In this document: in pieces, positions 10,049-26,628 of the stretch | How positions within the stretch are numbered: position 1 is the first letter of the stretch | Layout: the number at the start of each line of letters is the position of its first letter | Origin: a virus | Virus record (IMG/VR): IMGVR_UViG_3300030333_002885 | Span: 1-64,000 of that record | Length of the DNA stretch: 64,000 bases | Reading direction: 5' to 3' (one strand) | The notes under the pieces: generated by a model | What the model was told of the DNA's origin: nothing | Database searches by the model: none | What the model saw: the letters and a program-made list of their open reading frames with translations, nothing else | Made by a program: the position numbers and the translations under genes

Positions 10049-10093
10049 AATTCGGGAAAAAAATTCCCGAATTTTTTTTGACCTACAGGATTT
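10049..10093. repeat. A-tract dyad element, copy 1 (can also fold as a terminator)
   Basis: TCGGG-AAAAAAATTC-CC-GAATTTTTTTT-GA-CCT-ACAGGATTT; near-identical copy at 23654. Confidence 0.75.
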
Positions 10094-22889: not shown

Positions 22890-23653
22890 CAAAGATCCTT
22901 GTTACTGGTCATAAGGGATTCATAGGCAGTTATGTCTTCAATCACCTTAGACATGATGCAGGTTATGGATACCTAGTTGATGGTATGGATTTCCCCGATG
23001 ATGTCGGGGATTTTCAGTCTGAGATTAGTATGTTTGAAAAACCATATGATTATGTCATACATCTCGCAGCATTTGCTAACATCAGAGGCAGTTTAGATAA
23101 CCCAGATGTATTCTGGGAGAATAATGTAGAGAAGTCTAAACCTATCTTTGAATATTGTAGGAGATATAATGTCAGACTACTCTATGCTAGTTCAGCACAG
23201 GTAGAGGAGTGGTGGCAGAATCCTTATGGTATTACCAAGAAGGTTAATGAACTACAAGCACCACCTAATAGTGTAGGAATGAGGTTCCAGACTGTTTATG
23301 GTGAGAACAGTAGGTCTGATATGTTATTCAGAATGCTACAGGATAAGACTGCTAAGTATATTACTAATCATAAGAGAGACTGGATCCATGTTAAGGATGT
23401 TGCTAGAGCAATTTGTTACCTAATGTCTAGTACATATACTGGACACATAGATGTAGGAACAGGTGAGACTATAACAGTCAGAGAATTAGCAGAAGCATTT
23501 GGTCAGGCAAATCTACCAGTCAAGGAGAACACACCAGGTGAGAGAGATGTCACATGTGCTGACACTACTGCCTTGCGTGAACTCGGTTGGTTTCCAAGGG
23601 AAAAAGTTTTAGACTGTATTCCTGAGGGAAAACCGAACTCTCGTTTCAAATAA
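22886..23653 (+). CDS. NAD-dependent nucleotide-sugar epimerase/dehydratase
   Basis: TGHKGFIG, IHLAA, YASS, YGITK, RDWIHV.D. Confidence 0.88.
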   Translation: MTKILVTGHKGFIGSYVFNHLRHDAGYGYLVDGMDFPDDVGDFQSEISMFEKPYDYVIHLAAFANIRGSLDNPDVFWENNVEKSKPIFEYCRRYNVRLLYASSAQVEEWWQNPYGITKKVNELQAPPNSVGMRFQTVYGENSRSDMLFRMLQDKTAKYITNHKRDWIHVKDVARAICYLMSSTYTGHIDVGTGETITVRELAEAFGQANLPVKENTPGERDVTCADTTALRELGWFPREKVLDCIPEGKPNSRFK

Positions 23654-23695
23654 TCGGGAAAAAAAATTCGGGAATTTTTTTGAGCCACAGGATTT
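23654..23695. repeat. A-tract dyad element, copy 2
   Basis: TCGGG-AAAAAAAATTC-GG-GAATTTTTTT-GA-GCC-ACAGGATTT. Confidence 0.75.
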
Positions 23696-23701
23696 CAAAA
23701 A

Positions 23702-23717
23702 TGTAACAGTTGTTACA
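23702..23717. promoter_or_regulatory. NtcA-binding box
   Basis: TGTA-ACAGTTGT-TACA, an exact TGTA-N8-TACA palindrome. Confidence 0.7.
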
Positions 23718-23741
23718 GTTCTGGTCTTATACATAGTAATG

Positions 23742-23750
23742 TGTTATAAT
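23742..23750 (+). promoter_or_regulatory. Extended -10 host-sigma promoter
   Basis: TGTTATAAT; predicted start near 23757 coincides with the 5' end of aptamer 1. Confidence 0.7.
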
Positions 23751-23756
23751 GCACAT

Positions 23757-23803
23757 ATCGTTCAGTCCCAACAGGGACCGCAAGTAAGCCGACTCGGAAC
23801 GGG
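23757..23803 (+). ncRNA. Glutamine riboswitch-like aptamer 1 (glnA/Downstream-peptide family)
   Basis: P1 CGTTC/GAACG; P2 GTCCC-AACA-GGGAC; CGCAAGTAAG junction; upstream of a YRG peptide. Confidence 0.75.
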
Positions 23804-23805
23804 TT

Positions 23806-23991
23806 ATCGTTCATCCCATGTTTCATCTAGCAGCAATAGCAGCAACCTTTTCTTGCATCGATGCTCAAATGTTGATCGATAAGATCAATGAGTTTAAGAT
23901 TGAAGAGGAAACACGAGCTGAGATGATCAGCGTAGTGTTAGACGAAACACCTCATTGTGAGTGGGACGCAAAAGCCGACTGAAGGAACGGG
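23806..23991 (+). ncRNA. Glutamine riboswitch-like aptamer 2 with a 143-nt P2 loop
   Basis: P1 CGTTC (23808) / GAACG (23985); P2 TCCCA (23814) / TGGGA (23962); CGCAAAAGCCGACTGAAG 3' segment. Confidence 0.7.
23818..23982 (+). CDS. 54-aa ORF nested within aptamer 2
   Basis: MFHLAAIAATFSCIDAQMLIDKINEFKIEEETRAEMISVVLDETPHCEWDAKAD*. Confidence 0.6.
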   Translation: MFHLAAIAATFSCIDAQMLIDKINEFKIEEETRAEMISVVLDETPHCEWDAKAD

Positions 23992-24020
23992 TCTAATCCA
24001 CCCTACCTAAGGTAACCAAA

Positions 24021-24164
24021 ATGGCAAAAGTCACTTATCGTGGTGTCGAGTACGACACTGAAGAGTACAACGCAAAAATTCTCGATGAGAATGCAAGGCG
24101 TAACAGACACGATCTAATGTATCGTGGACTCAAGGTAAAAAGTGCTGCAATTCCTTGCAGTTAA
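24021..24164 (+). CDS. DUF4278-type YRG peptide (47 aa)
   Basis: MAKVTYRGVEYD...DLMYRGLKV; two YRG motifs; AAGGT Shine-Dalgarno upstream. Confidence 0.8.
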   Translation: MAKVTYRGVEYDTEEYNAKILDENARRNRHDLMYRGLKVKSAAIPCS

Positions 24165-24191
24165 ACTAGCAAAACCTGTGCATAGTAAAAG

Positions 24192-24216
24192 GAGGGGTAG
24201 ACACCCCTCTTTTTTT
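24192..24216 (+). terminator. Rho-independent terminator overlapping a sigma70 promoter
   Basis: GAGGGGT-AGAC-ACCCCTC-T7; TAGACA (24198) - 17 bp - TATAAT (24221). Confidence 0.8.
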
Positions 24217-24245
24217 ATACTATAATATCCAAAACGGAGGATCTT

Positions 24246-24479
24246 ATGTTACACATGCGAGAACAACTCCTTAGAGCAGTATTAGCACATGCTCAAGGTG
24301 AAATTGCTAAACATAGAGCAAATGTGGAAGTTTATCTAGAACATCCTGCAGGTATCGGAGAGCATTCAGATATTACTGAAGCAATTCAAGTTGAACTTGA
24401 TAAGATTGCTAGGTATGATGATCAAGTTGAAGTTATAAACAAATATTTTAGATCACCAAAAGAAACTTTAAATGGTTAA
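24246..24479 (+). CDS. Conserved hypothetical protein
   Basis: NVEVYL..PAGIGEHSDI motif; strong GGAGG Shine-Dalgarno. Confidence 0.75.
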   Translation: MLHMREQLLRAVLAHAQGEIAKHRANVEVYLEHPAGIGEHSDITEAIQVELDKIARYDDQVEVINKYFRSPKETLNG

Positions 24480-25223: not shown

Positions 25224-25353
25224 GATGTATAATGAGGAAGAACTCCATTATATGCGTCAGGCAAAACGAGAGGCTAAAGCAAAACTTAAATTGAAACAAC
25301 TTAGAAAACTACAAAATGACTGTAAAACTGATTCAGATAACACCAAAACCTGA
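25171..25353 (+). CDS. Small basic hypothetical protein
   Basis: KKALKHPEMY.EEEL.YM motif. Confidence 0.6.
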   Translation: MRLKETIKLVKKALKHPEMYNEEELHYMRQAKREAKAKLKLKQLRKLQNDCKTDSDNTKT

Positions 25354-25957
25354 GGAACAAATAGCGTATATCGCTAGGGTATCAAATCCCAAAAATCAGG
25401 ATAATCCAGATTATGCTAAATTGCTTGCTTATTGTATTAAGCATCAACATTGGTCTATATTTGAACAGGCATTTATGACATTGGAGATCGAGACCACTAG
25501 AGGTCTTGCTGCTCAGATATTGCGTCATAGATCTTTTACTTTCCAAGAATTTTCTCAGCGTTATGCTGATACTTCTTTAATGACAAAAGGTAGTTTAATA
25601 CCTATACCAGAATTGCGTCGTCAAGATTTAAAGAATCGTCAAAATTCTACAGATGATCTTGACCCAGAAAAGGTAAAAATGTTAGAGAAGGAAATTGCTC
25701 AACATTTTCATGATGCTCAGGATCTCTATCGTTATATGATAGATATGGGTGTTGCTAAAGAATGTGCCAGATTTGTATTACCACTTGCTGTACCAACTAA
25801 ACTGTACATGAGTGGTAGTGTAAGATCTTGGATACATTATATTGATCTTAGATCTGCTCATGGTACTCAGAAGGAGCATAAGGTTATTGCAGAGGAATGT
25901 AGAGAAATATTTAAGGTACAATTACCAACAGTATCTGAAGCATTGGGTTGGACATGA
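25316..25957 (+). CDS. thyX: Flavin-dependent thymidylate synthase
   Basis: HWSIFEQ, QILRHRSFTFQEFSQRY, ECARFVLP, TQKEH. Confidence 0.96.
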   Translation: MTVKLIQITPKPEEQIAYIARVSNPKNQDNPDYAKLLAYCIKHQHWSIFEQAFMTLEIETTRGLAAQILRHRSFTFQEFSQRYADTSLMTKGSLIPIPELRRQDLKNRQNSTDDLDPEKVKMLEKEIAQHFHDAQDLYRYMIDMGVAKECARFVLPLAVPTKLYMSGSVRSWIHYIDLRSAHGTQKEHKVIAEECREIFKVQLPTVSEALGWT

Positions 25958-26628
25958 CAAAGGTAACTCGTTTTACCAGTGATCCTCCACAATCACCTTA
26001 TGCTCCTATATGGGATTATTGTATTGCTGAGAAGGAGACTAATATTGATGTAGAAGAACTTGCTAAAATTATTTTATCTAAAGAAGAAGAAATTAAAGAA
26101 AAATATCCAGATGATTGGGATCAATATGATGACGGAGATACTGGTTTGGGTGCAGATAGTTTAACTGCTAGATTTAACTATTTTAATGTGTTAAAATGGG
26201 ATAGTCCAGTATGTGAGGAACTTCATAAGGAGATTAGAGGATTTCATGCAGAATACACGAGAAATACTATTGGTAATCTTAGTGACCATCAATTCTTTAA
26301 GGATGGTGGTGAATTAAAGGTTAGATGTTGGGCAAATGTGATGCGTAATGGTCAACAGATCAAAAAGCATTCTCATTCAAGTTACCCTCATTGTTATCTT
26401 AGTGGACATTTTACTGTTCAATGTGATAATACTTCAACGATATATTATCATCCATATCATCAAGAATCATACCCTTTTAAAAATTCACCTAATAGTATGA
26501 CATTATTCCCTACATGGGTTCCCCATAGTACGGATAAACATCAATCAGATGTACCTCGTATTACGATTGCATTTGATATACTATTACATAACAAACCGAA
26601 CAGTGAGGGAGAATTAGTCTCTCTCTAA
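25954..26628 (+). CDS. 2OG-Fe(II) oxygenase (TIGR02466-like)
   Basis: WANVMR, HSH, LSGH, FPTWVPHS, RITIAFD. Confidence 0.8.
   Translation: MTKVTRFTSDPPQSPYAPIWDYCIAEKETNIDVEELAKIILSKEEEIKEKYPDDWDQYDDGDTGLGADSLTARFNYFNVLKWDSPVCEELHKEIRGFHAEYTRNTIGNLSDHQFFKDGGELKVRCWANVMRNGQQIKKHSHSSYPHCYLSGHFTVQCDNTSTIYYHPYHQESYPFKNSPNSMTLFPTWVPHSTDKHQSDVPRITIAFDILLHNKPNSEGELVSL

Follow-up and report, generated by a model that had tools for sequence, protein, structure and literature searches.

The closest described precedent for the locus analyzed here is the cyanobacterial host triad of NtcA control, a glutamine riboswitch and a DUF4278 gene (PMC6212724). For the Synechocystis and Prochlorococcus leaders of this kind glutamine ON-switch behaviour was measured and NtcA repression reported, and for MED4 repression was inferred from an NtcA site that overlies the start of the gene (PMC6212724); a mechanism for the switch has been proposed from the Glutamine-II structure (PMC6698751). 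Elsewhere, NtcA sites in cyanophage genomes (PMC3037559), tandem glnA RNAs (PMC2864571) and glutamine riboswitches in T4-like cyanophage genomes (PMC9964418, PMC9602691, PMC9004378) have been described. We analyzed a 64,000-nt stretch (the window, whose positions serve as coordinates throughout) of IMGVR_UViG_3300030333_002885, a 75.6-kb IMG/VR contig that derives from a T4-like cyanomyovirus and has its nearest matches among Synechococcus and Prochlorococcus myoviruses (Kyanoviridae). Within it we read positions 23702-24216, + strand, as a self-contained small-gene cassette of T4-like cyanophages (Kyanoviridae) that was derived from a host leader for small DUF4278 proteins and then rearranged, a reading to which we give a probability of about 0.6. 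That the phage copies nitrogen-sensing parts of its host, in this rearranged form, is a hint and no proof that it reads the nitrogen status of the host. An earlier first-pass annotation of this DNA had tied glnA and Downstream-peptide RNAs to DUF4278 genes, a link for which the host triad is the precedent.

The cassette lies between a gene for an NAD-dependent epimerase, which ends at 23653, and a small gene that starts at 24246, and it runs from promoter to terminator. Its parts follow a conserved order: a distal GTA-N8-TAC box, a sigma-70-type promoter, two glutamine-riboswitch-type cores, a double-YRG DUF4278 peptide and a terminator. The TGTA-N8-TACA palindrome, TGnTATAAT, aptamer frames, double-YRG open reading frame (ORF) and terminator of the first-pass annotation are all present at the positions and in the order that it gave; what it took to be a 520-bp gap of the ORF track is not empty, and holds a conserved 54-codon ORF inside aptamer 2. 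The individual features are as follows (aa, amino acids).

23654-23695, + strand: upstream boundary, an A-tract/T-tract element (degenerate terminator) followed by the CACAGGATTT motif; second copy at 10052-10093
23702-23717, no strand assigned: distal NtcA-type box TGTAACAGTTGTTACA (TGTA-N8-TACA), read directly, its position conserved
23722-23750, + strand: sigma-70-type promoter with a weak -35 TGGTCT (23722-27), a 17-nt spacer and an extended -10 TGTTATAAT (23742-50); predicted +1 at about 23757
23728-23735, + strand: late-promoter-like TATACATA, one mismatch from the cyanomyovirus late promoter NATAAATA; would put +1 at about 23741
23739-23756, + strand: inverted repeat ATGTG-TTATAATG-CACAT round the -10 box, which also reads as TGTG-N8-CACA, a relaxed NtcA-like dyad
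23757-23805, + strand: aptamer 1, with ATCGTTCA, P1 CGTTC (23759-63) pairing with GAACG (23797-801), hairpin GTCCC-AACA-GGGAC, core CGCAAGTAAGCCGAC, then GGAACGGG; 33.9 bits on RF01739
23806-23818, + strand: 5' half of aptamer 2, ATCGTTCATCCCA, made up of ATCGTTCA plus the closing-stem 5' arm TCCCA(T); read directly
23818-23982, + strand: nested 54-aa ORF, phrog_504, its AUG in the closing-stem 5' arm and its TGA inside the aptamer core (GACTGA)
23962-23991, + strand: 3' half of aptamer 2, TGGGACGCAAAAGCCGACTGAAGGAACGGG, with 3' arm TGGGA, core CGCAAAAGCCGAC and P1 3' strand GAACG (23985-89); matches the short-loop consensus of relatives
23992-24020, + strand: linker with a conserved CCCTAC box and the Shine-Dalgarno sequence AGGT (24010-13); 29 nt here, 28-38 nt in most loci
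24021-24164, + strand: 47-aa double-YRG peptide, DUF4278 / phrog_5049; 75.9 bits on phrog_5049
24192-24216, + strand: intrinsic terminator GAGGGGT-AGAC-ACCCCTC plus T7, a G+C-rich hairpin that overlaps the next promoter

This anatomy is conserved across relatives. A scan of IMG/VR with the 24-nt exact aptamer-1 core as query matched at least 120 loci, nearly all with tandem cores, and from the matches listed we drew 90 distinct loci with enough upstream sequence, 114 distinct tandem units, and 32 short tandem units for alignment. Synteny across cyanomyophages, which the first-pass annotation had named as a check, is borne out by the joint conservation of the parts in these IMG/VR loci and in 81 isolate cyanophage records that match the cassette region, although the loci are mutually related and their counts therefore overstate independent events. 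A scan of 185,579 species genomes for the core sequence found the exact phage core in only four records and in no bona fide host genome. Two of the four are Prochlorococcus single-cell assemblies, one of the cores lying on a 189-kb contig that is also viral in IMG/VR; the remaining two (L127 and L128), small contigs placed in a Dehalococcoidia and a Poseidoniales metagenome-assembled genome, are most likely mis-binned cyanophage contigs. Among public RNA runs, four marine metatranscriptomes gave small shares, in the form of contigs; these extend over both aptamer cores, the YRG ORF and the gene after it, with no coverage upstream of 23733 or on 24140-24213; such contigs cannot reveal starts, levels or absence.

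On profile evidence, the 47-aa peptide is a member of DUF4278 and homologous to the host yfr6-type peptides encoded behind Glutamine-II riboswitches. The window's own copy scores 24.0 bits against DUF4278 (PF14105; E 4.9e-5), under the cut-off of 25.3 bits. All 58 diverse homologues of the peptide match the family at E up to 0.01 (best 7.3e-8), and many of its database relatives carry a precomputed PF14105 assignment. The protein collection holds 352 near relatives, mostly 47 aa long. A YRG ORF was found in 111 of the 114 distinct listed units, with two YRG motifs in 109, the three exceptions being cut contigs, and it usually lies 28-38 nt 3' of GGAACGG. When the profile of the phage peptides was compared with the 33-aa yfr6-type ORF behind a Prochlorococcus Glutamine-II leader, hhalign returned 93.8% (E 1.7e-7). 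When the profile of the YRG family was searched against the Protein Data Bank, only chance-level fimbrial matches and no solved relative came up.

The promoter was not called by a simple scan because its -35 element is weak. Relatives keep TTGACT-N17-TAnnAT across all families of repeat arms, with the -10 hexamer inside the inverted repeat, and the predicted start is therefore the first base of aptamer 1. The first-pass annotation had likewise let the aptamers begin at the predicted +1; the sigma-70 prediction of about 23757 stands, whereas a start there alone is doubtful, as the late-like motif may give 23741. The inverted repeat occurs with 32 distinct covarying arm pairs in the 90 listed loci, such as GTGTTA/TAACAC, GGTATG/CATACC, GGTCTA/TAGACC and GTCATG/CATGAC, with arms of 6-8 bp and loops of 3-4 nt, and fold prediction returns it as a 5' hairpin. 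Arms that covary so freely are less readily explained by a fixed protein site than by a folded strand. The proximal dyad over the -10 box takes the perfect form GTATGCTAACATAC in about a dozen relatives and has other arms or N10 spacing in most; in the sub-lineage of the window it is the relaxed TGTG-N8-CACA, and to judge by this dyad host NtcA perhaps binds over the -10 box there as well.

These features lend weight to a different account of transcription, in which the start of the main transcript lies near 23741, some 16 nt farther upstream, and is set by the TATACATA motif, or the two promoters are used in turn, and the inverted repeat acts as a protective 5'-terminal RNA hairpin, as in host leaders, and not as a DNA operator. 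We hold this to be a real possibility, a little short of an even chance. The covarying arms with their tetraloop-size loops suit it, as do the imperfect pairs in the repeat: the repeat-core pairs of L059, L063, L079, L113, L116 and L124 (GTGTTA vs TAGCAC) and the pair of Syn9 (GGTC vs GGCC) are T·G, which becomes U·G in + strand RNA, although the counts of G·T against A·C in the repeat are too few to separate an RNA from a DNA role. A spacer motif (CTATATAG/CTAAATAG/CATAAATAG) that resembles NATAAATA is kept 6-8 nt 5' of the repeat in relatives of all arm families, and overlapping early and late promoters have been described for cyanomyoviruses together with the late-promoter consensus (PMC2984593). 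In the hosts the palindromic NtcA box stands between the -10 box and the aptamer and so should be transcribed, and the yfr6 start has been reported about 20 nt 5' of the motif (PMC2864571). One marine metatranscriptome contig that matches exactly covers 23741-23920 and thus begins at the upstream position, a weak hint, given that contig ends show no RNA ends and that RNA libraries may contain DNA. Against the upstream start stands the sigma-70 promoter, conserved in both spacing and sequence, and the late-type motif is degenerate in many loci.

The assignment of the RNA cores draws on relatives as well as on the window. Rfam 15 sets gathering scores of 35 bits for Glutamine (RF01739) and 33 bits for Glutamine-II (Downstream-peptide, RF01704), membership of the latter being taken to require at least 33 bits together with a pseudoknot formed by the loop (GGAACGG) of a 3' hairpin. 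In a search by E-value, aptamer 1 approached the first cut-off with 33.9 bits (E 1.8e-5); on RF01704 it scored 24.3 bits, with the 3' stem columns flagged as non-pairs. In ten relatives with a short-loop aptamer 2, the RF01739 scores of this aptamer were 33.3-40.3 bits, of which eight reached 35 or more (35.0-40.3), and the aptamer 1 copies of two relatives reached the RF01704 cut-off, at 36.9 and 33.0 bits. The glnA and Downstream-peptide models, which the first-pass annotation had put forward as a check, thus leave the window's aptamer 1 below both cut-offs and accept copies from its relatives. The cores carry blocks of both glutamine riboswitch classes (CGUUCA, CGCA, GGAACGG) and sit between the two. 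Aligned, the 32 short tandem units reveal compensatory changes in both hairpins and almost no broken pairs; pair 8-25 of aptamer 1 is UA in 16 units, AU in 9, CG in 4 and GC in 3, and pair 63-78 of aptamer 2 is UA in 17, CG in 14 and GC in 1, whereas the P1 helix CGUUC:GAACG is invariant and therefore uninformative on covariation. As 1-4 nt separate the two cores in almost every one of the 114 distinct listed units, the arrangement is that of a tandem riboswitch. On these shared blocks and pairs, we assign the cores to the glutamine-riboswitch kind. A candidate switch helix, in which bases after GAACG would pair with the CCC box in competition with the Shine-Dalgarno sequence, was rejected, its best helices being no longer than those of shuffled linkers (3.11 vs 3.21 bp).

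Two such cores had been anticipated by the first-pass annotation, and they are there; they are not plain tandem copies, since aptamer 2 encloses a gene. The nested 54-codon ORF is a real gene under purifying selection, with a ratio of nonsynonymous to synonymous substitution rates of 0.11-0.40 against close relatives, and tblastn found it in 86 phage records; in many isolate phages it is annotated as a hypothetical protein. The aptamer 2 hairpin measures 138-245 nt in 77 of the 114 distinct listed units, in place of 12-22 nt. Among the 77 long-loop units, 73 hold an open ORF of about 48-65 codons whose ATG lies 3-6 nt into the 5' arm and whose stop is the TGA or TAA of GACTGA or GACTAA within the core, so that every nested protein ends in ...DAKAD or a near variant. 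The closing stem has at least 5 bp in 74 of the 77, with 36 distinct, covarying arm pairs, and the nested AUG is at least partly paired in it in 69 of 73. In about 25 listed loci (for example L021, L051, L075 and L083) aptamer 1 too encloses an ORF, of 64-69 codons, which ends ...IGRK at the TAA of CGCAAGTAAG; in Syn9 (NC_008296 159942-160576) the two nested genes are gp196 and gp197, and gp198 is the YRG gene. The aptamer-2 ORF of L101 is homologous to the aptamer-1 ORFs of L012, L072 and L074, and the nested gene family therefore moves between the two cores. A second 47-aa ORF, at 23739-23882 in another frame across the aptamers, has no family match and was treated as spurious.

Several observations on the peptide, the RNA and the distal box weigh against reading the cassette as a nitrogen sensor of host origin. 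As to the peptide, DUF4278 is the N-terminal moiety of IF17, which stabilises IF17 and is dispensable for inactivation of glutamine synthetase, and whether marine picocyanobacteria control glutamine synthetase in the IF7/IF17 manner is unclear (PMC6316151). The phage peptide consists of this DUF4278 part only and has no IF7-homologous C-terminal region, so that it does not qualify as a glutamine-synthetase-inactivating factor. As it matches the dispensable part of IF17, a glutamine synthetase role of the peptide is unsupported; direct inhibition of the enzyme by it is doubtful, and the earlier suggestion that the cassette may retune glutamine synthetase is reduced to a bare possibility. When the YRG peptide, as a 54-row alignment, was modelled in complex with the glutamine synthetase of a Prochlorococcus single cell that carries phage, the prediction scored 0.00, which has no bearing for or against binding. 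As to the RNA, the whole 64-kb window has no Rfam match at gathering thresholds, aptamer 2 of the window cannot be scored owing to its 153-nt insert, and no statistically supported alternative helix masking the ribosome binding site was found. Host Glutamine-II leaders score 57-60 bits on RF01704 and the phage cores differ from them, so glutamine binding by the phage cores is an assumption.

All four P1 strands are, moreover, identical, which makes pairing within each core and pairing across the cores equally possible. The cross-paired form is the one chosen by RNAalifold, and in the centroid fold of the window the inner hairpin appears. The two cores might thus form one unit, with the outer strands (5' of core 1, 3' of core 2) paired to each other and the inner two folded into a hairpin, or they might mainly couple or time translation of the nested and YRG genes with little or no glutamine sensing. 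Marginal scores on both Rfam models fit such an account, as does the fixed position of the nested gene's stop codon and AUG within the RNA core. Each core nevertheless keeps the sequence blocks of both riboswitch classes, copies with a short loop reach the RF01739 cut-off each by itself, and tandem glnA RNAs are a known arrangement (PMC2864571), and we therefore regard this account as doubtful.

The distal box has to be judged by its conservation among relatives, as TGTA-N8-TACA in the window alone is at chance (2 matches vs 2.9 expected). In 57 of the 90 distinct listed loci a 23-nt zone, 54-63 nt 5' of the aptamer, holds an exact GTA-N8-TAC, with 0.011 expected per locus (about 1 in total), and GT-N10-AC occurs in the same zone in 72 of the 90, with 0.085 expected per locus. 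The logo reads T-GTA-(T/A)CA-N5-TAC-A, in which N8 varies freely and 49 of the 57 retain the T at -1 and the A at +14. This is the pattern of a protein-binding dyad and, by its sequence, it matches the published NtcA consensus (PMC6212724). Host NtcA loaded with 2-oxoglutarate (2-OG) probably binds the distal box. Across the window as a whole, GTA-N8-TAC is enriched, with 32 sites against 20.3 expected, a count reached by 2 of 100 shuffles, in agreement with the report of NtcA sites in cyanomyovirus genomes (PMC3037559).

Of the adverse observations, the rest concern this box. Around one third of the listed loci have no exact distal box, keeping the left half only or nothing, and in Syn9 it is wholly absent. 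Its centre lies about -48 from the sigma-70 start in the window and about -51 in most relatives, and not at -41.5. A class II NtcA promoter has GTA-N8-TAC near -41.5, about 22 nt 5' of a TAN3T -10 box and in place of the -35 element; here the spacing from TAC to TATAAT is 28 nt (about 31 nt in most relatives), and in relatives a consensus TTGACT -35 stands between. These distances are not those of class II activation. Nor does the distal box overlap the promoter core, as it would at an NtcA-repressed promoter with its site over the -10 box or start site, a place that the relaxed proximal dyad does take here. With the distal box off the activating position, any NtcA effect may be of either sign; by analogy with the host gif genes, repression or damping under nitrogen limitation seems more likely than activation, because a dyad centred at about -48/-51 is unfit for class II activation. 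The NtcA box of the first-pass annotation accordingly stands as a palindrome in a conserved position, and its binding of NtcA and its 2-OG reading are putative, the box lying off the class II position. That the dyad is instead no NtcA site, but one element of an intergenic phage module (with terminator, CTGTAGGGTTT motif and early promoter) of a kind by which T4-type gene cassettes are shuffled, or the target of another CRP-family or phage protein, would suit its distance from the start, unlike that of NtcA-activated promoters, the far stronger conservation of its left half than of its right (TGTATCA / TGTAACAAAT), with many loci keeping the left half alone, its travelling with a conserved terminator and motif, whose copy at 10052-10093 lacks the dyad, and a consensus promoter in need of no activator, yet it is unlikely in view of the invariant GTA and TAC arms, the conserved flanking bases and free N8 of the NtcA consensus, the perfect NtcA boxes in host leaders of homologous genes, and the enrichment of such sites across the window.

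If the cassette is a nitrogen-sensing unit, it might work as follows. By analogy with the Synechocystis gifB and Prochlorococcus yfr6/PMM1846 leaders, L-glutamine would stabilise the CGUUC:GAACG helix and raise translation of the DUF4278 peptide, as an ON switch. Folding of core 2 would bury the AUG of the nested gene; conversely, translation of the nested gene would have to melt core 2, and a ribosome ending at the in-core stop would cover the P1 strand. With the AUG in the closing stem and the stop within the core, this geometry implies that core 2 folding and nested translation exclude each other, and the nested-gene and DUF4278-peptide outputs are likely set against each other. At the promoter, 2-OG-loaded host NtcA on the distal box would damp expression under nitrogen limitation as at the host gif genes. 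Taken to its full extent, one RNA would make a two-way choice: at high glutamine both cores would fold, the nested AUG would be locked and the DUF4278 peptide made, and at low glutamine ribosomes in the nested gene would keep the aptamer core unfolded and the peptide off. With NtcA and 2-OG acting at the promoter, and early and late starts giving leaders without or with the protective 5' hairpin, the phage would compute the carbon/nitrogen state of its host together with infection time in about 500 nt. This complete scheme we offer as speculation that is more probably wrong than right by a wide measure.

The flanks of the cassette show further regularities. The A-tract/T-tract element with (C)ACAGGATTT occurs in two copies, at 10052-10093 and 23654-23695, which flank a 13.6-kb block of sugar-modification genes. 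The first copy is a good hairpin terminator whose AGGA serves as ribosome binding site for an ORF from 10100, and in the second the hairpin pairing is lost. Related loci have a true hairpin terminator plus CTGTAGGGTTT immediately 5' of the NtcA-type box, and because related contigs carry this same terminator-plus-motif there, their sequences suggest a reusable intergenic module. On the 3' side, the next promoter, TAGACA-N17-TATAAT (24198-24226; 11 of 12 positions as in the consensus), overlaps the cassette terminator and precedes a 77-aa ORF, phrog_1811 (feature 24198-24479), which also lies downstream of the cassette in the marine virus AG-345-P14 (L004). Farther downstream, at 25316-26628, are genes for ThyX (PF02511, 160 bits) and a putative 2OG-Fe(II) oxygenase (PF13759); in S-PM2 and P-TIM68, thymidylate synthase and phoH are likewise downstream of the cassette. 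In the related viral contig L038 (586-780) a manA RNA (RF01745, 188.7 bits) lies about 200 nt 3' of the cassette, so that this variable region holds a cluster of structured RNAs.

A large share of the picocyanobacteria of the ocean is killed by cyanophages, and nitrogen is often the limiting factor for host growth as well as for phage yield. If our reading is correct, a 2-OG-linked DNA site together with a glutamine-sensing RNA would give a virus a direct route to the nitrogen status of its host. The cassette would also be a natural example of a riboswitch core whose fold spans a translated gene, and its small size makes it accessible to standard reporters, gel shifts and probing. For the role of the small DUF4278 proteins, abundant as they are, the phage copies offer a second handle beside those of the hosts.

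In our literature search, which left most subscription journals outside, we found no paper on the whole phage cassette, its DUF4278 gene, the position of the distal box, the -10 repeat or the nested genes. The Prochlorococcus yfr6/PMM1846-type leaders (PMC6212724, PMC6316151) share with the phage the same three kinds of part in the same order and a homologous double-YRG peptide. The two Prochlorococcus assemblies with the phage core each carry two Glutamine-II leaders (57-60 bits), and each of the four begins with a sigma-70 promoter, followed by a perfect palindromic GTA-N8-TAC where transcription is expected to start; after a further 4-5 nt come a single aptamer and a small YRG ORF, in accord with the report on MED4 (PMC6212724). 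In these leaders (L132 1440-1500, L133 1460-1500, L134, L135) the start-site NtcA box is palindromic beyond what NtcA needs (GTAGC-AACA-GCTAC, GTAGCAATTGCTAC), and the host palindrome could also act as a 5'-terminal mRNA hairpin. As in the hosts, a palindrome stands immediately 5' of the phage aptamer, ending 1-4 nt before it, and one host -10 context (TGTGTTAATAT) recurs in phage. The two differ in that the host has one high-scoring aptamer and the phage two divergent cores of 24-40 bits; the phage adds a distal box 5' of the -35 element, whereas the host box is at the start site; the proximal palindrome of the phage has shifted onto the -10 box and drifted freely in sequence; and genes are nested in the phage aptamer loops.

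The Synechocystis gifB (IF17) leader, with its NtcA-repressed promoter, likewise joins NtcA input and a glutamine ON switch 5' of a DUF4278-bearing gene, a combination predicted for the phage. Its riboswitch is of type 1 (glnA RNA, RF01739), the best Rfam family for the phage cores, which read CGCA in place of CGGAAGUAGG and have no clear P3 hairpin; IF17 itself has a C-terminal IF7-like part that inactivates glutamine synthetase, whereas the phage product stops at DUF4278. Published annotations of glnA or glutamine riboswitches in marine phages (PMC2864571, PMC9964418, PMC9602691, PMC9004378) agree with ours in the tandem arrangement, in their presence in cyanomyoviruses and in their basis in Rfam. 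Sullivan et al. 2010 (PMC3037559) described intergenic GTA-N8-TAC in T4-like cyanophages and, as here, read it as use of host 2-OG and NtcA; that study took such sites generally for activating promoters, whereas the present site is 5' of a complete sigma-70 promoter, at a non-activating distance, and paired with an RNA of the glutamine-sensor type. Phage glutamine riboswitches, tandem glnA RNAs, cyanophage NtcA sites and the host triad are thus already published, and the phage unit is a rearranged relative of the host leader.

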